Notes under the pieces: generated by a model
The model's database searches: none
The model's input: only the letters and a program-made list of their open reading frames with translations
Told to the model about the DNA's origin: nothing
Program-made: the position numbers and the translations under genes
DNA from: an uncultured delta proteobacterium
GTDB lineage: Bacteria > Desulfobacterota > Binatia > Binatales > Binataceae
Length of the DNA stretch: 64,000 nucleotides
Assembly: GCA_963789835.1 (NCBI GenBank)
Contig: CAWBMF010000003.1
Location: 441,068-505,067 of the forward strand
Direction of reading: 5' to 3'
Part shown: one piece after another, positions 3,017 to 44,134 of the stretch
Layout of the letters: every line of letters begins with the position of its first letter
How positions within the stretch are numbered: position 1 is the first letter of the stretch

Positions 3017-4771
3017 ATGAATACAGATCTAGTGACAGACAAAACCGACGAGCGCAGTCCCACCTCAGATAGGTTCGATCGCGTTTTCTGGAAACGCTTT
3101 TGGCGATTGATCCGCCCGTATTGGACATCGGAAAGACGGCGGTCGGCCTTCGTGCTGGTTTCGGCAATGACGGTGCTGAATCTCGGCACGGTCGGGATGC
3201 AAGCGGTTTTCAGCTACGTGTCGCGCGACGTGATGAACGCGCTGCAAGCGAAAGACGCCGCACGGTTTCATCATCTCCTGGTGCTATTCGCGCTTTGGAT
3301 CGTGGTGTTCGTGCCCATCGCTGCCTTTTATCCATACTTAAGCGGGCTCCTCAGCATCGACTGGCGCGACTGGATGACAGAAAAATTTGTCAAAGGCATG
3401 CTGCAGGGCAACGCGCTTTACTACATCATGCGCGATCGTACGGTCGACAATCCCGACCAGCGGATCAGCGAAGACGTCAATAGCTTCACGAGCGGTGCGC
3501 TTACCTACTCGATGACCGTGCTGCAGGCGATCGTAACTGCAATCGCGTTTTTTGGAATCTTGTGGGAGATCTCGCGTTGGCTCGCCGTAAGCTTGATCGG
3601 CTATTCGCTGGTCGGCAGCTGGCTGGCCATCGTCATCGGACGCCGTCTGATAGTTATCAACTTCAATCAGCAACGGTTCGAAGCGGACTATCGGTTCGGA
3701 TTGGTCCACGCGCGCGACAATGCCGAAGCGATCGCGCTCTACGACGGCGCGCGCGATGAAGCTCATCAGCTAGGGCGGCGCTTTGCGAGGGTGGTCAACA
3801 ATTACAAGCTGCTCATTTTGTGGCAGCGTCATCTGACGCTCTTTACAGCCGCCTACGACAACGCGGCCAACCTCGTCCCATATTTCGTTTTGGCCGGCGC
3901 CTACTTTTCCGGACGTTTTGCGCTGGGCGAATTTACCCAAGCGGCGTATGCGTTTTCGATTCTGCAGAGTTCGATGGCGCTGGTTGTCGATCAATTCCAG
4001 GCACTTACCGACTACGCATCGGTGGTTAATCGTCTGTCGGTTTTCGAGGAGTCCTGTGAAAAGGCAGCCAGCAAGCAAAGCGATGGCGAGCAGCAAATCG
4101 AGGTAGCGGAAGATGACTCACAGATTGCGCTTAAGAACATCACCCTGGCGACGCCGGATCGCGCGCGCGTTTTGCAGCAGGATGTTTCACTTGCGGTCGC
4201 CCGTAGAGACTCTCTGCTGATCACCGGTCCGACCGGTGCGGGCAAGACCTCGCTCATGAGGGCTGTCGCGGGCCTATGGAGAGCCGGTAGCGGGGGAATC
4301 TTGCGGCCGTCGCCGAATCATATCCTGTTCATGCCACAAAAGCCTTATTTGATCCTGGGTTCGATTCGCCAACAGATTCAATATCCAAGGGCCGACGCGG
4401 TCAGCGACGAAACTCTCATGGAAGTGCTGCGCGAAGTCGACCTTGCCTATCTCCCCGGCCGGTTCGGCGGTCTCGACGCCGAGCTCAACTGGGCCGACTT
4501 GCTGTCGGGGGGCGAGCAGCAGCGTCTGGCCTTCGCGCGGCTCCTGCTCAGTCGACCGCGCTTTGCAATTCTCGACGAGGCAACCAGCGCTCTCGATATT
4601 GCTTCTGAAGAGCGCTTGTACTCGCGGCTTGCGAGCCTGCCCATCGCCTTTATCAGCATCGGGCACCGGCCAAGCCTGCGCAAATTCCATAACCGGGTGA
4701 TCGAGCTGTCCCTTGGCTCCGAGTCGCCGATCGAGATCGTCGGATGCGCCACTAACGAGTCCTCATCCTGA
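3017..4771 (+). CDS. fused ABC transporter permease/ATP-binding protein (ABCD / SbmA-BacA-like, ABC_membrane_2 type)
   Basis: N-terminal TM domain contains the NPDQRISEDV motif. C-terminal NBD has Walker A (GPTGAGKTS), the ABC signature LSGGEQQRLAFARLL and Walker B (ILDEATSALD). Confidence 0.8.
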   Translation: MNTDLVTDKTDERSPTSDRFDRVFWKRFWRLIRPYWTSERRRSAFVLVSAMTVLNLGTVGMQAVFSYVSRDVMNALQAKDAARFHHLLVLFALWIVVFVPIAAFYPYLSGLLSIDWRDWMTEKFVKGMLQGNALYYIMRDRTVDNPDQRISEDVNSFTSGALTYSMTVLQAIVTAIAFFGILWEISRWLAVSLIGYSLVGSWLAIVIGRRLIVINFNQQRFEADYRFGLVHARDNAEAIALYDGARDEAHQLGRRFARVVNNYKLLILWQRHLTLFTAAYDNAANLVPYFVLAGAYFSGRFALGEFTQAAYAFSILQSSMALVVDQFQALTDYASVVNRLSVFEESCEKAASKQSDGEQQIEVAEDDSQIALKNITLATPDRARVLQQDVSLAVARRDSLLITGPTGAGKTSLMRAVAGLWRAGSGGILRPSPNHILFMPQKPYLILGSIRQQIQYPRADAVSDETLMEVLREVDLAYLPGRFGGLDAELNWADLLSGGEQQRLAFARLLLSRPRFAILDEATSALDIASEERLYSRLASLPIAFISIGHRPSLRKFHNRVIELSLGSESPIEIVGCATNESSS

Positions 4772-4844
4772 TGCAATCGGGAAAAGAATCCTGGTGAGAG
4801 AGAACCATGCTTCCGGCTTGATCGCGCCCTCCTCGCCTCCAGAG

Positions 4845-5444
4845 TCAGCTGGGCGGTTGCTTATCCGGTGCCGCATCTCCGTCAAGCAAGCGCTGCAAAT
4901 GGCTGGAGGGAGATTCGTGCGCGGCGTGGCCGTCGTGCCCGGTATTCAAAGCGCAGGCCGGCGTGACGTGAGTCTGCGGCGGCTTGAACTCTGTGGGCAA
5001 CAAACGCTCGCGGGCTGCCCACTGATCGAAATTGCCGGGAGCGCTCGCCAGCAGGCGAAATCGCATACAGACAGTGTTGCAGCCACAACCGGAATCGCAA
5101 TTTCCGTGGAGCTCGCCGGGTGACTTGACGATCAGATCAAGTGGCCGCGTCTTACCGGGAAAGATGTCCACCGCGTCTTTCATTCCAGAAATCCAAAAGC
5201 TGTGGATCACGTCGGCGGAGGCGAGTTCAAGCCGCACATTCGTAGCAGTGGGAAGGTACAGTACATCGCTGGTCTTGATGCCGAGCGACGGGTAATCGAA
5301 TTCCCACCACCACTGATGCGCGACCGCCTTGACCGTGAGCGCAGGCCGGCTGTCGCCATCGACGATTCGAGCGACAGAGATCACTCCGGCGCAGATGCAC
5401 GCCAGACCGACGAGGGCTGCCACGAATGGCAAGGACGATTTCAT
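4845..5444 (-). CDS. cytochrome c oxidase subunit II-like cupredoxin domain protein (single N-terminal TM/signal, divergent CuA motif)
   Basis: HQWWWEFDYP and DVIHSFWIS match the COX2 cupredoxin core. Metal-site region reads HGNCDSGCGCNTVCM, where canonical COX2 reads CxExCGxxHxxM. Start overlaps the upstream SCO gene stop (ATGA). Confidence 0.6.
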   Translation of the reverse strand: MKSSLPFVAALVGLACICAGVISVARIVDGDSRPALTVKAVAHQWWWEFDYPSLGIKTSDVLYLPTATNVRLELASADVIHSFWISGMKDAVDIFPGKTRPLDLIVKSPGELHGNCDSGCGCNTVCMRFRLLASAPGNFDQWAARERLLPTEFKPPQTHVTPACALNTGHDGHAAHESPSSHLQRLLDGDAAPDKQPPS

Positions 5445-6172
5445 GCGCGCGCCGCCTGAAAGATAAGCGCTATGATGGCGCCGTCGGCGGCCGCAACCGG
5501 CTCGTGATCTACAGCCTTCTCGACGTCGCTCGCGACGCGGTCCGGCTCGGCCTTCTCGCCCATGTACTGCAGCAATGCTTTGCCGTTCGCATCGACCAGG
5601 AAGAACTCGAGAACATGATCGACGGTGCCGTCCGCTTCGTGCTTTCGAATCAGATCGAAATGCGCCATCACATCGTCGATCTGTTTTGGCGTTCCCGTAA
5701 GAAACAGCCAGCCATTAACGTCGGCGCCTTGTGCCTTCGCGTATGCGTTCAGCTGTGTAGGTTGATCGTGTTCGGGATCAACCGTGATCGACACGATGCG
5801 CGCTTCCGTTCCAAGCTTGGGCCCGAGTCGATTGGCAATCTGCTTCATCCGGCTCGTGAGGACGAGGCACGGTCCCGGACAGGTGGTGTAGATGAAATCG
5901 AACAGCACGGGTTTGCCCTTCAGCGAGGCCAGGGAAACGTTGTGGCCGTTCTGATCGACCAGCGTGATATCGGGCAAGCAGTCGGAGGCGTCGCGCACCT
6001 CGAATCCTCCACGCTCGCCGATGTCTGGTGCCTCTTGAGCCTGCTGGCGGCAACCAGTCAGCGTCACCGCGCCAACGAGCGTGATCAGCAGCGTCAGAAA
6101 TAAGCTTTTCCTGATTGACGAAACGGTTCGAGTAGAATTCATGGTACTTCTTTTTTTAATTCTCGCCGGCAT
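5441..6172 (-). CDS. SCO1/SenC-family copper chaperone/thiol-disulfide protein (lipoprotein)
   Basis: Thioredoxin-like fold with FIYTTCPGPC (CxxxC) and a downstream His. N-terminal lipobox LTGC. Alternative start MNSTR at ~6142 would remove the overlap with the upstream gene. Confidence 0.75.
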   Translation of the reverse strand: MPARIKKRSTMNSTRTVSSIRKSLFLTLLITLVGAVTLTGCRQQAQEAPDIGERGGFEVRDASDCLPDITLVDQNGHNVSLASLKGKPVLFDFIYTTCPGPCLVLTSRMKQIANRLGPKLGTEARIVSITVDPEHDQPTQLNAYAKAQGADVNGWLFLTGTPKQIDDVMAHFDLIRKHEADGTVDHVLEFFLVDANGKALLQYMGEKAEPDRVASDVEKAVDHEPVAAADGAIIALIFQAARA

Positions 6173-6620
6173 AATTTCTTCGGAGCGCCTCGCGTATCTG
6201 TTCGACCGGCGAGCCCTGCTCCGACAGTTGCTCCGCCATCAACGCCTCTCCGACGCAGATTTCGCACACCGAGGCGTGGGTGCCTCGATAACAATCGAGC
6301 AGATTCTGATGGCCGTAGGTCTTGTCGCATCCGCAATAGCAATGGAGTTGAGCGAGCAGCGCGGGATTCTTCTCCGCGACCTGGTACGCCTGCTTTACCG
6401 GACCGACGTACTGGTTAGGATCGAGCGTCAAGCGCCCCTGCGATCCGCTAGTGGCAACCGTTCCTGCAGTCGCCCGGCCCGCGCAGCAGCAATGGCCCCC
6501 AATGCACATCGCGCCGCGCGCACCGCCATTGTCCGCGATTGAGGCGCCGAACGCTGACCAGAGAAATGCCACTACCAGAACGGCCGCGGCCGAGGAGCCT
6601 AAAATAATTGCTCGCTTCAT
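6156..6620 (-). CDS. PCYCGC-motif protein (PF13798-like) with Cys-rich N-terminal segment
   Basis: HCYCGCDKTYGHQNLLDCY... motif. Signal/TM segment followed by CIGGHCCCAGR. Confidence 0.6.
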   Translation of the reverse strand: MKRAIILGSSAAAVLVVAFLWSAFGASIADNGGARGAMCIGGHCCCAGRATAGTVATSGSQGRLTLDPNQYVGPVKQAYQVAEKNPALLAQLHCYCGCDKTYGHQNLLDCYRGTHASVCEICVGEALMAEQLSEQGSPVEQIREALRRNYAGEN

Positions 6621-6630
6621 TCCGGCACTC

Positions 6631-7275
6631 TCAACTATGGCTCAGAGTTTTCTTAACGTCGTCGACGATGTCCTGCGCCTTGACGATCTGACCGTTGTAT
6701 TCTCGCACCAGCCGCCCATCCGGTCCAATCAGCATCATATTGACCAGGTGGCCGACCGAACCGTCCGGCTCGATTTCCCGGCTCAGCTTGAATCCGGCCA
6801 GCGCCTGATCGATGTCGCCGGGACCTCCGGTCAGGAAATACCATCCCTTCTCATCCGCCCCTTGCTGACGGGAGTAGTCGAGCAATTGCTTGGGCCCGTC
6901 ATGCTCGGGATCGACGGTGATCGAAACGAGCGTCACCTTCGATCCGAGATCGCTGCCGAGCCGCAGCGCGACGTTCGCAAATTTTGCCGTTTCCATCAGG
7001 CACGGTCCCGGGCATGACGTGTAGATGAAATCCACCACCAGTGGTTTGCCCTTGAGTGATGAGAGCTCAACCGTATTGCCATTCTGATCGACCAGCTTGG
7101 TGTCGGTGAGGACACTAGCGGGGCCATTCACGGTTGAGCCGCTGTGGCATCCAGCCGCTGTAAATAAGCTCGAAGCTACGGCCAGCACGATGCCGAGAGA
7201 TCTAAGATTGAAACTAATATTACTCATATCTGTCTCCGTCAAAAGCTGTAACTCAAGATCGTTTTGATCGCGCAA
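6631..7275 (-). CDS. SCO1/SenC-family protein (second copy)
   Basis: FIYTSCPGPC CxxxC motif. Paralogous to 5441..6172 (VDQNGxxVxLxSLKGKPxxxDFIYTxCPGPC). Confidence 0.75.
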   Translation of the reverse strand: MRDQNDLELQLLTETDMSNISFNLRSLGIVLAVASSLFTAAGCHSGSTVNGPASVLTDTKLVDQNGNTVELSSLKGKPLVVDFIYTSCPGPCLMETAKFANVALRLGSDLGSKVTLVSITVDPEHDGPKQLLDYSRQQGADEKGWYFLTGGPGDIDQALAGFKLSREIEPDGSVGHLVNMMLIGPDGRLVREYNGQIVKAQDIVDDVKKTLSHS

Positions 7276-7297
7276 GGCGCCACCAATACTCGCGGCT

Positions 7298-7672
7298 TCA
7301 TGGCGTCAGCGACCACGTCAGGACCGGGAGGGGGACCTTCCGATCGAGTGCTTCGGCGTTCTCATACATGGTGCGATCGTCCTCAGCGAGGGTCTCTCTT
7401 GCTTGATTCGAGTTGGCCACGCATTGAGACACATCGCGCTTGAAATACAGTGACTGGATTTCCAGCGGAGAGAGCGCGCCGAGAGGCATCACGACGTTGC
7501 TGGTTACAGCGTCGTCGCTCATCGCCGCTTCTTCGATGCACTTATCCTCGTTTTGATCGAGGCGCTGCTCAGCCTGTTCGAGGTTACTCTTTGCCGCGAC
7601 CGAGTTGTCCGGAGTTTGCGTTGCACAGCCGACGAGAAGAATCGCGATAATGGCGAAGACTCTCATCTTCAA
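7298..7672 (-). CDS. hypothetical lipoprotein
   Basis: Signal peptide plus lipobox (LLVGC). Acidic, coiled protein. Translationally coupled with the upstream TlpA gene (overlap at 7669-7672). Confidence 0.45.
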   Translation of the reverse strand: MKMRVFAIIAILLVGCATQTPDNSVAAKSNLEQAEQRLDQNEDKCIEEAAMSDDAVTSNVVMPLGALSPLEIQSLYFKRDVSQCVANSNQARETLAEDDRTMYENAEALDRKVPLPVLTWSLTP

Positions 7673-8103
7673 TGTCCCTGGCCCGCGTCGTGGGACGCCG
7701 CTCGTTCAGACAATAACGGCAGGACGGCCTTGCTCAGGCTTTGCTCAGTCAGAGGAGTTTCGTCGGGGGTCAGCTTAGCGCGAACAATACCCTGCTCGTC
7801 GACGATGTAAGTGATGGGGAGTTCGGTAGGATCGTTGAAGCCGTTGGATTCGCAATCGCGCAACATCGCTGCCGGGTAAGCGAAGGACTCCATCGTCTTG
7901 GCAACATCCGACCGTTCGTGCAGCCGATTAGCCGCCAGACCGATCATCTCGAGTCCCTTGTCGTGATAGCGTCGATAGAACGCGTCGAGCGTCGGCATTT
8001 CCGCCTGGCACGGAGGGCACCAAGTGGCCCAGAAGTTGACTACGACCACCTTTCCGCGTTGTGCGGCGAGATCAAAGGATTGGCCGTTCAACTCCTGGAC
8101 CAC
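7669..8103 (-). CDS. TlpA/ResA-like thiol-disulfide oxidoreductase (thioredoxin fold); N-terminus probably extends upstream
   Basis: VVNFWATWCPPCQAEMP motif. ORF track starts at a GTG (8101-8103). The same frame stays open up to ~8217 and encodes a signal-like NALAALVLLTISFAATSAC, but has no canonical start codon. Confidence 0.65.
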   Translation of the reverse strand: MVQELNGQSFDLAAQRGKVVVVNFWATWCPPCQAEMPTLDAFYRRYHDKGLEMIGLAANRLHERSDVAKTMESFAYPAAMLRDCESNGFNDPTELPITYIVDEQGIVRAKLTPDETPLTEQSLSKAVLPLLSERAASHDAGQGH

Positions 8104-37560: not shown

Positions 37561-37764
37561 GTGAGACTCGCGTTTTATGGACGCTTCAGCTCCGACAATC
37601 AAAGGGAAACCTCAATCGCCGACCAACTGCGCATAGTGCAAAGATGGTCGCATCAACACGGACATAAGATCATTTCCGAGTTCTCGGATGAGGCCACGTC
37701 CGGAGCCAATTTGAAGTTGCTGTTGGGGCTTCAAAGGGCACTTGATGCGGCACACCCGAGTTAG
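37561..37764 (+). pseudogene. N-terminal remnant of a serine recombinase (resolvase/integrase)
   Basis: MRLAFYGRFSSDNQRETSIADQLRIVQRWSHQHGHKIISEFSDEATSGAN matches the catalytic N-terminus of serine recombinases (YxRVSTxxQ...SIxxQ). Only 67 codons before a stop. Confidence 0.45.
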
Positions 37765-38054: not shown

Positions 38055-38131
38055 TGGTTGCGGGGGAAGGATTTGAACCTTCGACCTCCGGGTTATGAGC
38101 CCGGCGAGCTACCAGACTGCTCCACCCCGCC
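38055..38131 (-). tRNA. tRNA-Met (anticodon CAT), initiator-like (three G-C pairs in anticodon stem)
   Basis: Reverse complement folds as ...GCGGGG-TG-GAGCAGTCTGGTAGCTC-GCCGGGCTCATAACCCGGAG-GTCGAAGGTTCAAATCCTTC-CCCCGCA-ACCA. Very similar to E. coli tRNA-fMet. Confidence 0.8.
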
Positions 38132-38565: not shown

Positions 38566-39723
38566 ATGAGCCTCAAGGGAAAAGCCGCGGCGATTGGAAT
38601 CGGAGAACTCAAACCGTTCAAGGAGCACGGCGACCTCACCGCGCTCGGCTTGATGGCGCGCGTGTCGGCCGAAGCGATCGCGGACGCGGGATTGGAGAAG
38701 AAAGACATCGACGGCTTCCTGGTCGGCGTGCCGTATTCCGATCCGGGCATGATTTACCCGGCCAGCGCGGCTGAGGTGCTGGGACTCAACACGCGGATGC
38801 TGAATCAGGTCGATATCGGCGGCGCCAGTGCCGCCGGAATGATCTGGCGCGCGGCCGCCGCGATCGACGCAGGTATGTGCAGCGCAGTGCTGTGCCTCGT
38901 CGCCGATCTGAACAAGGTCGGCGACCAGCGCCCGCCAGTCATCTCGGTGCAGCGCGAGTTCGAGGCGCCGTATGGAAATATCGGCGCGAACTGCGGCTAC
39001 GCGATGATCGCGCATCGCCATATGTACGAATACGGAACCACGGCGCGGCAGATGGCGAAGGTCGCGGTCGATCAGCGGACCAACGCGCTTAAGAATCCGC
39101 TGGCGACGTTCAACGACAAGCCGCTCACGATCGACGACGTGCTGAACTCGCGCATGATCGTCGACCCGCTGCATCTATATGAAATCGTCAGCCCGGTGAG
39201 CGGCGGCGCAGCGATAATCGTCGCGTCGCCCGAAGTGGCGAAGCGTTCCAAGAATCCGCCGATTTGGCTGCTGGGCGCGGGCGAGTACGCCAACCATTCG
39301 ACCATCACGTACGCGCCGTCGATCACCACCTCGCCGATCAAGGTCGCCGCCGAGAATGCTTTCAAGATGGCCGGCCTGCAGCCGAAAGACATGGACCTCG
39401 TGTGCCCGTACGACTGCTACACGATTACGGTGATCGTCACGCTCGAGGATGCGGGCTTCTGCAAGAAGGGGGAGGGCGGTCCGTTCGTGATGGAGCACGA
39501 CCTGACGTACGCGGGCGATTTTCCGTGCAACACGCACGGCGGGCAATTGTCGTTCGGCCAGCCGGGCCTGGCGGGCGGCATGAGTCACGTGACGGAAGGG
39601 ATAAGACAGTTGATGGGGCGCGGCGGCGAGCGCCAGGTCAAAAACGCGGCGCTCGGCTACGTCAACGGCAACGGCGGAATCATGAGCGAGCAGGCAAGTC
39701 TCATTCTGGAGCGCAAATCATGA
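38566..39723 (+). CDS. thiolase-like / SCP-x-type lipid-transfer protein (acetyl-CoA C-acyltransferase family)
   Basis: Thiolase-fold N-terminus KAAAIGIGELKPF...; catalytic-region C-terminus NTHGGQLSFGQPGLAGGMSHVTEGIRQLMGRGG. Confidence 0.7.
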   Translation: MSLKGKAAAIGIGELKPFKEHGDLTALGLMARVSAEAIADAGLEKKDIDGFLVGVPYSDPGMIYPASAAEVLGLNTRMLNQVDIGGASAAGMIWRAAAAIDAGMCSAVLCLVADLNKVGDQRPPVISVQREFEAPYGNIGANCGYAMIAHRHMYEYGTTARQMAKVAVDQRTNALKNPLATFNDKPLTIDDVLNSRMIVDPLHLYEIVSPVSGGAAIIVASPEVAKRSKNPPIWLLGAGEYANHSTITYAPSITTSPIKVAAENAFKMAGLQPKDMDLVCPYDCYTITVIVTLEDAGFCKKGEGGPFVMEHDLTYAGDFPCNTHGGQLSFGQPGLAGGMSHVTEGIRQLMGRGGERQVKNAALGYVNGNGGIMSEQASLILERKS

Positions 39724-40121
39724 GCGAGTACTACAAACCGCTTCCGAAGCCATCGCCAACCAGCCGCCCGTTTTGGGAGGCAGCGCGGCGCCACGAGTTG
39801 ACGATTCAGCGATGCGGCGCGTGCCGCGAGTACATCTACTATCCGCGTCCTCGATGCCCGAAATGCTTCTCGGACAACCTTGGTTGGGAGCGCATAAGCG
39901 GTCGCGGCAAGGTCTACAGCTATACCGTCGTGCGGCGAGCGTCGAGCCGCGCGTTTGCGGACGGGCCGTACGTGCTGGCGATCATCGAGCTGGCCGAGGG
40001 CCCGCGCATGACGAGCAATCTAGTCGCGCCGCCGGAGCAAGTGCGCGTCGAGATGCCAGTCCAGGTTTTCTTCGATGACGTGACGCCGGACTGCACGCTG
40101 GTGAAATTCAAGCCTGCGTGA
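39720..40121 (+). CDS. DUF35 OB-fold / Zn-ribbon protein (thiolase partner)
   Basis: MSEYYKPLPKPSPTSRPFWEAARRHELTIQRCGACREYIYYPRPRCPKCFSDNLGWERISGRGKVYSYTVV: CxxC...CxxC rubredoxin-like ribbon plus OB fold. ATGA overlap with the thiolase stop. Confidence 0.65.
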   Translation: MSEYYKPLPKPSPTSRPFWEAARRHELTIQRCGACREYIYYPRPRCPKCFSDNLGWERISGRGKVYSYTVVRRASSRAFADGPYVLAIIELAEGPRMTSNLVAPPEQVRVEMPVQVFFDDVTPDCTLVKFKPA

Positions 40122-40142
40122 TTGCGGCGAGCAAGTCGCAGT

Positions 40143-40820
40143 TCACGCCAGCAGGACTGCGACGATTCCCGTCAGAAAGATCCCGTCGAAGGTGCCGGCC
40201 CCGCCGATCGAGGCGACCGGTGCGCCGAGATCGCGCAGGTTGCGGAGGTTGAGCAGGTCGGCGCCGATCAGCGTGCCAATCACGCCGCTGATGAATGCGA
40301 CCGCGTCGCGATGATGCTCCGAAGAGCCGAGGAAGTAGCCGCATAGCGCGGCGACGATCGGCGGAATCAGCATCGGCGTCGCGATTCCCATCCCCGGCAC
40401 CGGCATCGCGAACCGATGAACGATCGCGGTTACGATCGCGACGCCGATAAGCGAAGGCACCACTATCGTCGGCATCTGCATCAGCAGGTAAATCGAGATG
40501 AGCACCGGAACGATCGCGCCGCCGACGTTTACTGCGAGGATGGTCGAGCCGGTGACGTAGCGCGTCGGCACCCGGTAGCGGACGCCGAAACTGCGAACTA
40601 TCTCGGCGGGATGCGGCTGGCCGGCCGCGACGCGCGTGATTGGAATATTGATGTAGCTGCCGACCAGGCTGACGAGCAGCGCCGTAAACGCCAGCTCGGG
40701 CGGCAGTCCGAGCGACACGAAAGCGTAATTGATGACGTGGATTTCGACCAGGATGAAAAAGAACGCGAGGACGAAGAAGAAGATTATTGCGTAGAAGGCG
40801 AGGAACGGTGCGAAGAACAC
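40143..40820 (-). CDS. DUF1614-like polytopic membrane protein
   Basis: Highly hydrophobic, ~7 TM segments. Translationally close to the upstream methyltransferase gene. Confidence 0.4.
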   Translation of the reverse strand: MFFAPFLAFYAIIFFFVLAFFFILVEIHVINYAFVSLGLPPELAFTALLVSLVGSYINIPITRVAAGQPHPAEIVRSFGVRYRVPTRYVTGSTILAVNVGGAIVPVLISIYLLMQMPTIVVPSLIGVAIVTAIVHRFAMPVPGMGIATPMLIPPIVAALCGYFLGSSEHHRDAVAFISGVIGTLIGADLLNLRNLRDLGAPVASIGGAGTFDGIFLTGIVAVLLA

Positions 40821-40829
40821 CGAGCTATC

Positions 40830-41402
40830 TTAGCTATGGCGCAAGCCCGGGAAAAACCGGCGGCGCGTGCCGAGGGCGTCGGCGTACCGCCCGCCCATCG
40901 CGCGTTCCTCGGCTGGAATTCGCACGGCGAGAATCAGCGCGTTGCCGATCGAGAATGCGATCGCCGTGAAAATCGCGCCGCCGATCATCGGCACGGCCGC
41001 GATCTCGATCACGACGGCGAGATAATTCGGATGACGCATGAAGCGATACGGGCCGTTGGTCGCGGGCGCGCGGTCGGGACTCACTATGATTCGCGTGTTC
41101 CATCGATCGCCGAGCGTCGCCACCGCCCAGTAGCGCAGCGCTTGCGCGACGAGTTCAGCCGCCAACGCGATCCACGCGACCGCCGGTGGAAACGCGCGCG
41201 GGAAAAACGTCGCCTCGACGGCGCACGACACGATGAACAGCGTGTGGAACGCGACCATTACGCGGTAATGCACCTGGCCGACTTCGACCGCGCCATGCTG
41301 GAATGCGCGACGAGCGTTGCGCCGCGCGCGATCGAGCTCGAACACGCGCTCGACGATCAGCAGCGCAAGGATGATCAGATACGTGCGGAGCGAGATGAAC
41401 AC
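40830..41402 (-). CDS. isoprenylcysteine carboxyl methyltransferase (ICMT)-family membrane methyltransferase
   Basis: RHPNYLAVVIEIAAVPMIGGA motif plus a C-terminal EERAM element. 4-5 TM helices. Confidence 0.65.
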   Translation of the reverse strand: MFISLRTYLIILALLIVERVFELDRARRNARRAFQHGAVEVGQVHYRVMVAFHTLFIVSCAVEATFFPRAFPPAVAWIALAAELVAQALRYWAVATLGDRWNTRIIVSPDRAPATNGPYRFMRHPNYLAVVIEIAAVPMIGGAIFTAIAFSIGNALILAVRIPAEERAMGGRYADALGTRRRFFPGLRHS

Positions 41403-41412
41403 GTCAGCGAAA

Positions 41413-42480
41413 TTACCACTTCAACAGTACGAGCTCGACCGAGAATCCCGGACCCATCCCGACGATGAGGCCGTAGTCGCCGGGCGCTGCTTCGTGGTCC
41501 TCGAGCAAATCGTCGAGGATGAACATCACGGAGGCCGACGAAAGATTTCCCACCGATCGCAGCGAGTCCCACGAGCGTGCCAGCGCCGCCTCGGGCAGCT
41601 CGAGCGCGCCTTCGAGAGTTTCGAGCACCTTGGGGCCGCCCGCGTGCGCGATCCAGTGCTTGATATCCGAGCGGTCGATATTTTGCGTCGCGAGGAATGA
41701 ATCAACTTCGTCGAGGATGTTGGCGCGCACGAGGTCGGTAAGCTTCGACGACAGCACGATCTTGAATCCGCTGTCGACTATCTCCCAGCCGAGAATTTCT
41801 TCGGTGTTGGGGAACACGAGCGAACGCGTCGCCTGTACCTGCGGACCGTCCTCCGCACTCGCATTGCCGCCGATCAGCATCGCGGCCGCGCCGTCGCCAA
41901 AAAGACCGGACGCTATAATGTTGGCAATCGACAGATCTTCGCGCTGCAGCGTCAGCGAGCACAGCTCGACCGACAGCAGCATCGCAACCTCCCCCGGATA
42001 CGCGCGAATGTAGTCGGCGGCGCGCGCAGTCCCGGCCGCTCCCGCCACGCATCCGAGCCCGAATATTGGTGTGCGCTTGATTTCCTTGCGCATCCCGAGC
42101 GCGCTGATGACGCGAGTGTCGATGCTCGGAACGGCGATGCCGGTCACGGTGACGAAGAACAAATGATCGACGTCGCGCGGCTTCAGCCCTGCGCGTTCGA
42201 GCGCAATCTCAGCGGCCGCCGTGCCGACCTCGGGCGCAACTCGCAGCCACGCGTCGTTGGCCTTGGCGAACGTGTCGAGCGGGATGTATTCCTCGATCGG
42301 CAGCGCAAGATGACGCCCGGTGATTCCGAGCGCGCCCTGGATTTTGTCGAAGCGGCGCATATCCGACCATCGCCGCTCCCATAACTCGCGGAGCCGCGAA
42401 GTCAGCTGTTCCTGATTGACGTAATTACCAGGTAGCGCGGTGCCGGTTCCGATCACTCGGGGTGAATCGTTGCTTATCAC
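41413..42480 (-). CDS. type III polyketide synthase (chalcone/stilbene-synthase-like)
   Basis: Catalytic Cys context GLGCVAGAAGTARAADYIRA. C-terminal HAGGPKVLE...GMGPGFSVELVLLKW (His/Asn region). Confidence 0.7.
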   Translation of the reverse strand: MISNDSPRVIGTGTALPGNYVNQEQLTSRLRELWERRWSDMRRFDKIQGALGITGRHLALPIEEYIPLDTFAKANDAWLRVAPEVGTAAAEIALERAGLKPRDVDHLFFVTVTGIAVPSIDTRVISALGMRKEIKRTPIFGLGCVAGAAGTARAADYIRAYPGEVAMLLSVELCSLTLQREDLSIANIIASGLFGDGAAAMLIGGNASAEDGPQVQATRSLVFPNTEEILGWEIVDSGFKIVLSSKLTDLVRANILDEVDSFLATQNIDRSDIKHWIAHAGGPKVLETLEGALELPEAALARSWDSLRSVGNLSSASVMFILDDLLEDHEAAPGDYGLIVGMGPGFSVELVLLKW

Positions 42481-42685
42481 TTATAATCGCGTAGCGCCCG
42501 AGTCGCGGGACCCTTGCGATATCGCTGCCTCTCCTTCTCCGCCCGGCGAACCTACACGATCCATCGAGCAAGAGCTATGCAGTCAGTCTTGGTTCGGGGG
42601 CGGGCGTGTTTCACGCTATCAACAGCGCGACTACTATTATTACGCTCTTGTGCCCCACGTTACATCCGTTAAGATCACCCCAATT

Positions 42686-43258
42686 ATGAAATCTGAAGAG
42701 CGCCGCGAGCTGCTGGCGATGCTCGCCCGGGAGTCGTATTTCGAGCGACAACTCACGCTTTCCTCCGGGCGCGCGTCCAATTACTACCTCGATTGTAAAC
42801 GCACGCTGTACCTGCCACGTGGTGCGTACCTCGCCGGAGAGTTAGTGCTTGAGCTCGTAAAGGCGGCCGGCGTCGAGCAACTCGGCGGCATGGCGGCCGG
42901 AGCGCTGCCGGTGACTGACGCGGTGATGGCCGCGGCGCATCGTGGCGGCGTCGAGATCCGCGGATTTTTCGTGCGCAAGGAAACCAAGCAGCACGGCCTG
43001 CAGCAAATGATCGAAGGCGCTTTCAAGCCGGGGCTCAAGACCGCCGTGATTGACGACACCAACACGACCGGCGGATCGAGCTTGCAGGCTGTCGCCGCGA
43101 TGCGCGAGGCAGGTGCGAATGTGGTCGCGGCAATCACGCTGGTGGAGCGCGGTGAAGGCGCGGCCGAAGCGTTCGCGCGCGAGGGACTGAAGTACAGCTG
43201 GGTGTTTACCGCAGACGAAGTGCGCGCCGAACGCGCCGCACATCCCGTCGCCGGCTGA
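42686..43258 (+). CDS. pyrE: orotate phosphoribosyltransferase
   Basis: PRPP-binding motif TAVIDDTNTTGGSSLQAV. MKSEERRELLAML... start with an upstream RBS region. Confidence 0.7.
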   Translation: MKSEERRELLAMLARESYFERQLTLSSGRASNYYLDCKRTLYLPRGAYLAGELVLELVKAAGVEQLGGMAAGALPVTDAVMAAAHRGGVEIRGFFVRKETKQHGLQQMIEGAFKPGLKTAVIDDTNTTGGSSLQAVAAMREAGANVVAAITLVERGEGAAEAFAREGLKYSWVFTADEVRAERAAHPVAG

Positions 43259-44134
43259 ATGCCTTCGGCAACTTCTCGCGACATCGCGGTCGCGGCGATT
43301 TTCGGCGACCCCGTCGCACATTCCAAGTCGCCCGCGATGCACAACGCCGCCTATGCGGCGCTCGGCATGAACCGAACCTACGCCGCGTTTCGCGTCATGC
43401 CGGCGAATCTTGCGGCGGCGCTTCGCGCGATTGTTCCGCTCGGAATCGTCGGCGTAAATCTGACGGTTCCGCACAAGGAAGCCGCGGCCCGCTACATCAA
43501 GGATCTGAGCGGCGAGGCGCGGATGCTCGGCGCCGTCAATTGCGTCGTCAATCGGCGCGGTGCGCTCCGCGGCGACAATACCGATGCGCTCGGCCTCGAG
43601 CGCGACTTGCGCGATCTCGAATGCGATCTGCGCGGACGGCTCGCGATCGTGATCGGTGCCGGCGGCGGCGCCGCATCGTCGGTGCTTGCCTGCAAGCGGC
43701 TGGGCGCGAGCCAGGTAGTGATCGTAAATCGTACGCCTGCTCGCGCGGCTGCCCTCGCGCGGCGTCTTTCGGCGAAGGGCATGAGGCGCGCGGCCGGTGA
43801 ACCTCGCGGCCTCGACGCGCTGATGGACTCGGCGCTGCTCGCCGACGCCGGATTGATCGTCAACGCAACCTCGATGGGCCTGACGACGGGACACTTCGCG
43901 CGCCTCGACTACCACTCAACCGCCGCCGACTGTTTTTTTTACGACCTGATTTATGCGCCCGAGCCGACCGCGTTCATGAAGCCCGCGCTTGCCGCCGGCC
44001 GGCGCGCTGCAGACGGCGCCGGGATGCTCGTGAACCAGGGCGAGCTCGCCTTCAAACTGTTCAATCGAGTCGCGCCGCCGGCCGGCGTGATGCGCGCGGC
44101 TTTGCTCAACTCGCTGGGCCGGGTAGAAAGTTAG
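43259..44134 (+). CDS. aroE: shikimate dehydrogenase
   Basis: GDPVAHSKSPAMHNAAYAALG, VNLTVPHKEAA, and the Rossmann motif VIGAGGGAASSV. Confidence 0.75.
   Translation: MPSATSRDIAVAAIFGDPVAHSKSPAMHNAAYAALGMNRTYAAFRVMPANLAAALRAIVPLGIVGVNLTVPHKEAAARYIKDLSGEARMLGAVNCVVNRRGALRGDNTDALGLERDLRDLECDLRGRLAIVIGAGGGAASSVLACKRLGASQVVIVNRTPARAAALARRLSAKGMRRAAGEPRGLDALMDSALLADAGLIVNATSMGLTTGHFARLDYHSTAADCFFYDLIYAPEPTAFMKPALAAGRRAADGAGMLVNQGELAFKLFNRVAPPAGVMRAALLNSLGRVES

Follow-up and report, generated by a model that had tools for sequence, protein, structure and literature searches.

The window analyzed here, a 64,000-nucleotide stretch of DNA from an uncultured delta proteobacterium of the Binataceae, contains three consecutive genes on the minus strand (40143-42480) that encode a type III polyketide synthase (PKS), a membrane methyltransferase of the isoprenylcysteine carboxyl methyltransferase (ICMT) family and a polytopic membrane protein of the DUF1614 family. 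The corresponding open reading frames (ORFs) were found at exactly the coordinates claimed in an earlier note on this DNA and are separated by 10 nt between PKS and methyltransferase and 9 nt between methyltransferase and DUF1614. While the earlier note had considered all three genes to be components of one variant pathway to methylated phenolic lipids, comparison with related loci (designated by L numbers below) revealed that the apparent three-gene cluster is made up of a mobile cassette of two or three genes and a resident gene beside it.

The product of the first gene matched both chalcone/stilbene synthase domains in Pfam (Chal_sti_synt_N, PF00195, 67.4 bits, E 2e-18; Chal_sti_synt_C, PF02797, 72.2 bits, E 6e-20; cut-off 27). 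Its closest solved relative was Pks11 of Mycobacterium tuberculosis (4jao, 286 bits, E 4e-84, over residues 11-355), and every one of the best 60 of 102 PDB matches was a type III PKS. The catalytic residues Cys144, His279 and Asn312 are in register with C138, H277 and N310 of Pks11, a triad that is common to FabH as well and therefore not discriminating by itself, and a GMGPGFS loop at residue 341 represents the G(M/F)GPG loop typical of type III PKSs. Domains, Pks11 match, catalytic residues and loop thus bear out the chalcone-synthase-like type III PKS proposed earlier. FabH models in NCBIfam scored 73-75 bits against cut-offs of 249-292 (TIGR00747, 75.5 bits versus 292), and judged by the PDB matches and these scores the protein did not group with the β-ketoacyl-acyl carrier protein synthases III (KAS III) of the FabH type, the grouping that the earlier note had named as speaking against its assignment. 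As far as its sequence tells, the enzyme encoded by the first gene is a true type III PKS rather than a FabH. Relatives of the enzyme are named 'alkylresorcinol/alkylpyrone synthase' by JGI, and from homology and the annotation of these relatives we predict the use of long-chain fatty acyl starters and the formation of a pyrone or resorcinol ring. Translation from the GTG at 42480 is plausible, given that substitutions in the first 8 codons are mostly synonymous across relatives; if another GTG, at 42456, were used instead, the product would be 347 aa long, as called in L001.

For the second gene, the assignment to the ICMT family with an RHPNY motif agreed with a match to PF04140 (91.8 bits, cut-off 24, E 4e-26) and with the position of this motif at residues 123-127, followed by PAEE at 163, which together form the RHPxY...EE cofactor-binding motif. 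The protein was weakly similar to 4a2n and 5vg9, two solved ICMTs, with the 4a2n alignment spanning the RHPxY...EE region. The protein did not reach the NCBIfam model for true protein-S-isoprenylcysteine O-methyltransferases (NF040696, 45.4 bits versus a cut-off of 160), and this score below the equivalog cut-off together with the RHPNY and EE motifs fits a putative small-molecule O-methyltransferase such as BpsB or SrsB. Both enzymes could also be read as members of primary metabolism, the PKS as a FabH-type KAS III or another thiolase-fold enzyme and the ICMT-like protein as a true prenylcysteine or phospholipid methyltransferase, in which case no phenolic lipid would be made. Secondary Pfam and NCBIfam matches to ACP_syn_III_C, FabH and PEMT as well as the automatic NCBI name of relatives ('3-oxoacyl-ACP synthase III C-terminal domain-containing protein') point in this direction, but we regard it as extremely improbable in view of the PDB matches headed by Pks11, the FabH and isoprenylcysteine methyltransferase scores far below their cut-offs, the GMGPG loop, and a strict gene pairing across phyla that matches the experimentally characterized BpsAB and DquAB (PMC9827899).

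This pairing was apparent from a tblastn search with the PKS against a plasmid/replicon collection (210 records), from which 11 regions were fetched (two from Streptomyces and one each from Nonomuraea, Azospirillum, Phyllobacterium, Nitrobacter, Sphingomonas, Marinovum, Brevibacillus, Lysinibacillus and a record labelled Stenotrophomonas). Together with about eight closer relatives these make up the sampled PKS loci, whose flanks were searched over 4-6 kb. An ICMT homologue was located directly downstream of the PKS and on the same strand in all 11 loci outside the Binataceae, an adjacency far beyond chance that identifies the pair as a conserved core unit and confirms the parallel to srsAB drawn in the earlier note. 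No DUF1614 homologue was present within 4 kb of the pair in any of these 11 loci. The next gene after the pair differed among them and encoded an FAD (flavin adenine dinucleotide) monooxygenase, a short-chain dehydrogenase/reductase, a major facilitator superfamily transporter or nothing relevant; the FAD monooxygenase follows the PKS-ICMT pair in Streptomyces (L084), where the PKS is preceded by a gene for a UbiA prenyltransferase. Similar arrangements have been described: Bacillus (BpsAB) and Sporomusaceae (DquAB) share a conserved two-gene type III PKS/ICMT-like locus whose products are alkylpyrones (PMC9827899), and Planctomycetota and cyanobacteria contain operons in which a PKS gene is combined with methyltransferase and oxidoreductase genes (PMC10896814).

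Among the fetched records, L087 (CP031730.1, 'Stenotrophomonas rhizophila plasmid') agrees with L088 (NZ_CP130332.1, a Lysinibacillus fusiformis replicon) in most of the gene order and in the exact coordinates of several genes. The shared genes comprise the PKS-ICMT pair, rpmG, three hypothetical genes and one for a GTP-binding protein, and L087 additionally carries rsgA and a methionine--tRNA ligase gene, which like its rpmG are housekeeping genes. The L087 record looks doubtful in its taxonomic label or in its status as a plasmid.

The closer relatives were obtained in a search seeded with the PKS of L009, with identities given relative to the PKS of the window. The PKS-ICMT pair was also observed in L095-L097 and L099-L102, while L098 contains the PKS alone without an ICMT partner. 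L095 (PKS 60% identical) displays the PKS-ICMT-DUF1614 trio at the pyrE site. The pair follows sulfate-assimilation genes in L099 and L102 (59-61%), adjoins an alpha-amylase gene in L100 (60%) and is part of the order PKS-ICMT-acyl carrier protein-AMP ligase-FAD monooxygenase in L101 (58%); no DUF1614 gene was found in the loci L098-L102. A different arrangement was that of L097 (65%; 4001-8073), in which pyrE is followed by PKS, ICMT and FAD monooxygenase (404 aa, PF01494), a 545-nt gap that holds an ORF called on the opposite strand, DUF1614 and the convergent DUF35/thiolase genes. The same site here harbors a cassette like srsABC that clearly does not include DUF1614, and the version in the window looks like the hydroxylase-less form of this cassette.

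The reverse view was taken from DUF1614 (PF07758, E 2e-59 for the protein in the window, in agreement with the family assignment in the earlier note). The analysis covered an alignment of 75 diverse DUF1614 proteins and a set of 80 genome loci, each set member from a different species, in which PKS and methyltransferase genes near DUF1614 were sought by tblastn and phmmer with the proteins of the window. Only three of the 80 loci contain PKS-ICMT beside DUF1614, and all three are Binataceae-like: L004 and L005, both Binatus, with DUF1614 proteins 88-93% identical to that of the window, and L009 with 64%. Fourteen related loci, mostly labelled Binataceae or 'delta proteobacterium', encode a DUF1614 protein that is 60-71% identical and have neither PKS nor ICMT; pyrE is located within about 170 nt upstream in eight of them and 0.5-0.8 kb upstream in three more, and the DUF35/thiolase pair follows downstream in nine. 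This pair is kept next to DUF1614 in relatives both with and without the PKS. The remaining 63 loci are more distant (50-57% identical or less; among them Desulfobacterota, Bradyrhizobium and other Xanthobacteraceae, Methanosarcina, Methanothrix and Bathyarchaeia), and in none of them is a PKS or ICMT located within about 6 kb of DUF1614. The DUF1614 adjacency is thus lineage-specific synteny and not a recurrent association, and the 14 PKS-less loci at the same site together with the layout of L097 indicate that the PKS-ICMT cassette adjoins a pre-existing DUF1614 gene.

Several of the sampled Binataceae loci exhibit additional variation around this site. In two PKS-less loci a small ORF of 144-173 aa without Pfam match (L012, 5303-5824; L017, 4495-4929) fills the gap between pyrE and DUF1614, and this intergenic site seems to accept different insertions. 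The Binatus relatives L001-L003 carry a FitA-like/PIN toxin-antitoxin pair between DUF1614 and the convergent DUF35 gene (about 6731-7370 in L001) that is not present in the window, so in these relatives the trio is undisturbed, but its boundary with the DUF35/thiolase pair is variable. In L009 (5113-5974) the ICMT homologue matches in two frames, with fragments from 5113 and 5420, as the result of either a frameshifted pseudogene or an assembly error.

Taken together, the functional unit is probably a two-gene phenolic-lipid module of the bpsAB/dquAB type (srsAB without the hydroxylase), situated beside a pre-existing DUF1614 gene that is no defining part of the pathway. Weighing against this interpretation, the 9-nt spacing and the shared strand make co-expression with DUF1614 likely, and the trio is kept in two clades of the Binataceae with about 60-64% identity between their PKSs, a retention compatible with some selective benefit of the linkage. 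A dedicated three-gene pathway, in which DUF1614 would replace the hydroxylase as a Binatus partner that inserts, flips, exports or further modifies the methylated phenolic lipid, could account for these features, namely the strand, the short gaps, terminators that are not above the shuffled expectation (see below) and the conservation in the Binatus clade as well as the L009/L095 clade, and would be in line with a polytopic membrane protein with the invariant polar residues N98, D188 and D212. We nevertheless consider it unlikely, because 14 relatives keep DUF1614 at the same site without PKS-ICMT, none of the 63 more distant DUF1614 loci has either gene, all sampled PKS-ICMT loci outside this site (11 distant, four closer) are without DUF1614, L097 has the hydroxylase with DUF1614 545 nt away beyond an opposite-strand ORF, and DUF1614 occurs in methanogens and Bathyarchaeia, where none of the loci has a type III PKS within 6 kb. 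Of the proposal in the earlier note, methylated phenolic lipids therefore stand as a prediction by homology for the PKS-ICMT pair, while the variant pathway with DUF1614 as its third component is not supported.

According to the two-gene interpretation, the PKS would be primed with a long-chain fatty acyl thioester, extend this starter with malonyl-CoA or possibly methylmalonyl-CoA and cyclize the chain to an alkylpyrone or alkylresorcinol, after which the ICMT-family membrane enzyme would O-methylate a ring hydroxyl using S-adenosylmethionine (SAM), and the product would be a methoxylated amphiphile residing in the membrane. A methylated alkylresorcinol or alkylpyrone lipid is a sensible prediction, between which the sequence does not distinguish pyrone from resorcinol. 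In the window ORFs, analyzed with Pfam, no FAD monooxygenase was detected between or beside the cluster genes. Because a hydroxylase like SrsC is missing, a methyl ether is expected as the end product, as in Bacillus subtilis, rather than a quinone. With this prediction, the Binatota, an abundant and uncultured phylum of soil, join the lineages with a type III PKS and ICMT-like module for membrane phenolic lipids.

Among known systems, BpsAB and DquAB exhibit the same order of a PKS followed by an ICMT-family membrane methyltransferase on the same strand without a hydroxylase, and the catalytic triad is conserved, with the PKS of the window being Pks11-like (PMC9827899). The window differs in its origin from an uncultured member of the Binatota, in a PKS that is only about 33-36% similar to the Bacillales homologues, in a product that is predicted only, and in the unrelated DUF1614 gene that adjoins the pair. 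PKS and methyltransferase are also shared with the SrsABC system of Streptomyces griseus and the Agq type of Actinoplanes, which produce alkylresorcinol-derived quinones by means of a PKS, an ICMT-like methyltransferase and an FAD hydroxylase, with or without a UbiA prenyltransferase. The closest sampled relatives outside the Binataceae were plasmid-borne copies in Streptomyces (PKS 47-48% and methyltransferase 44% identity) that carry the FAD monooxygenase and the UbiA gene, and within the family L097 has the full PKS-methyltransferase-FAD monooxygenase set. In contrast, the cluster in the window is without the FAD monooxygenase, and hydroquinone or quinone products are therefore not expected. 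Pks11 of M. tuberculosis, a long-chain alkylpyrone synthase, resembles the PKS of the window over nearly its full length including the aligned Cys, His and Asn residues, but differs in its surroundings, the pks7-8-17-9-11 cluster, in which no adjacent ICMT-like methyltransferase is known. The arsABCD genes of Azotobacter encode two type III PKSs and two type I fatty acid synthase-like proteins and are not known to include an ICMT-like methyltransferase, which makes the likeness to the ars architecture noted earlier inaccurate. The cluster in the window, unlike arsABCD, has a single PKS and no flanking fatty acid synthase-like genes. In Azotobacter vinelandii, the Ars system provides membrane or cyst phenolic lipids made by type III PKSs (PMC6836626 for ArsB).

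With regard to its history, the cassette is situated between pyrE and the pre-existing DUF1614 gene in a subset of the Binataceae. In a neighbor-joining tree of DUF1614, which as a tree of one short protein is weak, the PKS-bearing loci were not monophyletic, so that a single gain is inseparable from repeated loss. PKS, DUF1614 and pyrE have diverged to a similar degree, and the patchy distribution together with this similar divergence would fit an old acquisition followed by repeated loss; alternatively, the cassette may have been gained independently. Signs of a recent horizontal transfer were not seen in the GC content and the GC at third codon positions (GC3) of the PKS and methyltransferase genes, both of which match their neighbors. 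A further scenario, in which loss or absence of the hydroxylase put the methyltransferase 9 nt from DUF1614 and the latter was then co-opted in the Binatus lineage for insertion, flipping or export of the methylated phenolic lipid, appears improbable to us, but if true would give a first hint at the function of this membrane family, which is widespread in bacteria and archaea.

Transcription of the unit was examined from the sequence between and around its genes. Three terminators were found compared to 3.5 expected from shuffling, the region of the unit contained no match to the sigma-70 consensus, and Rfam yielded no match in 39500-43300. Since the gap is 9 nt and terminators are not enriched, transcription from the PKS promoter probably continues into DUF1614. 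The three genes are thus probably co-transcribed, with DUF1614 included as a consequence of its position, and this shared transcription is positional and no evidence of a common function. The locus has cautionary value in that tight same-strand spacing can mimic a three-gene cluster. The intergenic region between pyrE and the PKS contains blocks that are strongly conserved among the window, L001, L004 and L005. One of them, GATCTTAACGGATG...GGGGCACAAGAGCG, is followed by an ATAAT core that adjoins the pyrE start and reads TATAAT in the three relatives and AATAAT in the window, while another, TCCCGCGACTCGGGCGC, lies just upstream of the PKS start. These conserved blocks are possible promoter or operator candidates.

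The features of the locus and its boundaries are compiled in Table 1. The neighbors of the cluster in the window are pyrE (TIGR00336, 118.6 bits versus a cut-off of 106.8 in NCBIfam), aroE, a glyoxalase-family gene, the DUF35 gene and the thiolase-like gene. The length of the region between pyrE and the PKS follows from the actual pyrE start, and on the other side the stop of the DUF35 gene is 21 nt from that of DUF1614.

Table 1. Features of the PKS-ICMT-DUF1614 locus and its boundaries in the window.
Feature	Coordinates	Strand	Basis
Type III PKS of the alkylresorcinol/alkylpyrone-synthase kind, 355 aa	41413..42480	-	Pfam, PDB match to Pks11, NCBIfam
ICMT-family integral-membrane SAM-dependent methyltransferase, 190 aa, BpsB/SrsB/DquB counterpart	40830..41402	-	Pfam, motifs
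DUF1614 polytopic membrane protein, 225 aa	40143..40820	-	Pfam PF07758, AlphaFold2 (AF2) model
Divergent intergenic region pyrE/PKS, 205 bp, presumed promoter region of the PKS-ICMT-DUF1614 unit	42481..42685	.	Sequence reading
pyrE, orotate phosphoribosyltransferase, divergent; upstream boundary and syntenic anchor	42686..43258	+	NCBIfam TIGR00336
DUF35/ChsH2-like OB-fold protein, convergent; downstream boundary, paired with thiolase-like gene 38566-39723	39693..40121	+	Pfam OB_ChsH2_C, zf-ChsH2

The DUF1614 family comprises about 2,000 clusters at 50% identity, and the closest homologues of the protein in the window carry the names Candidatus Binatus and Binataceae. Residues that are invariant in the 75-protein alignment include N98, G100, G101, P105, D188 and D212. 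The AF2 model is confident (pLDDT 90.9) and shows a membrane protein built of helices plus a small beta element; no solved structural relative and no sequence match in the PDB were found, and a literature search on DUF1614 returned nothing related. A recurrent DUF1614 neighborhood was sought over the 80 genomes and none was widespread outside the Binataceae. The commonest neighbor clusters, each in 4-9 of the 63 distant loci, were histidine kinases, radical-SAM proteins, an iron-sulfur/DUF362-like gene (Syntrophobacterales) and a UbiD-like gene (Methanothrix). DUF1614 represents a mildly interesting target, but the locus in the window tells little about the family.

Outside the cluster, a tRNA-Met gene on the minus strand (38055-38131) is located beside a truncated serine-recombinase fragment of 67 aa (Resolvase N-terminal, 37561-37764). 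The surrounding stretch at about 37.1-38.5 kb is gene-poor, and the GC content is about 0.55 in the 36-38 kb bin versus about 0.61-0.64 from 38 kb on. This tRNA-Met/recombinase stretch has the appearance of what is left of an element once inserted at the tRNA.

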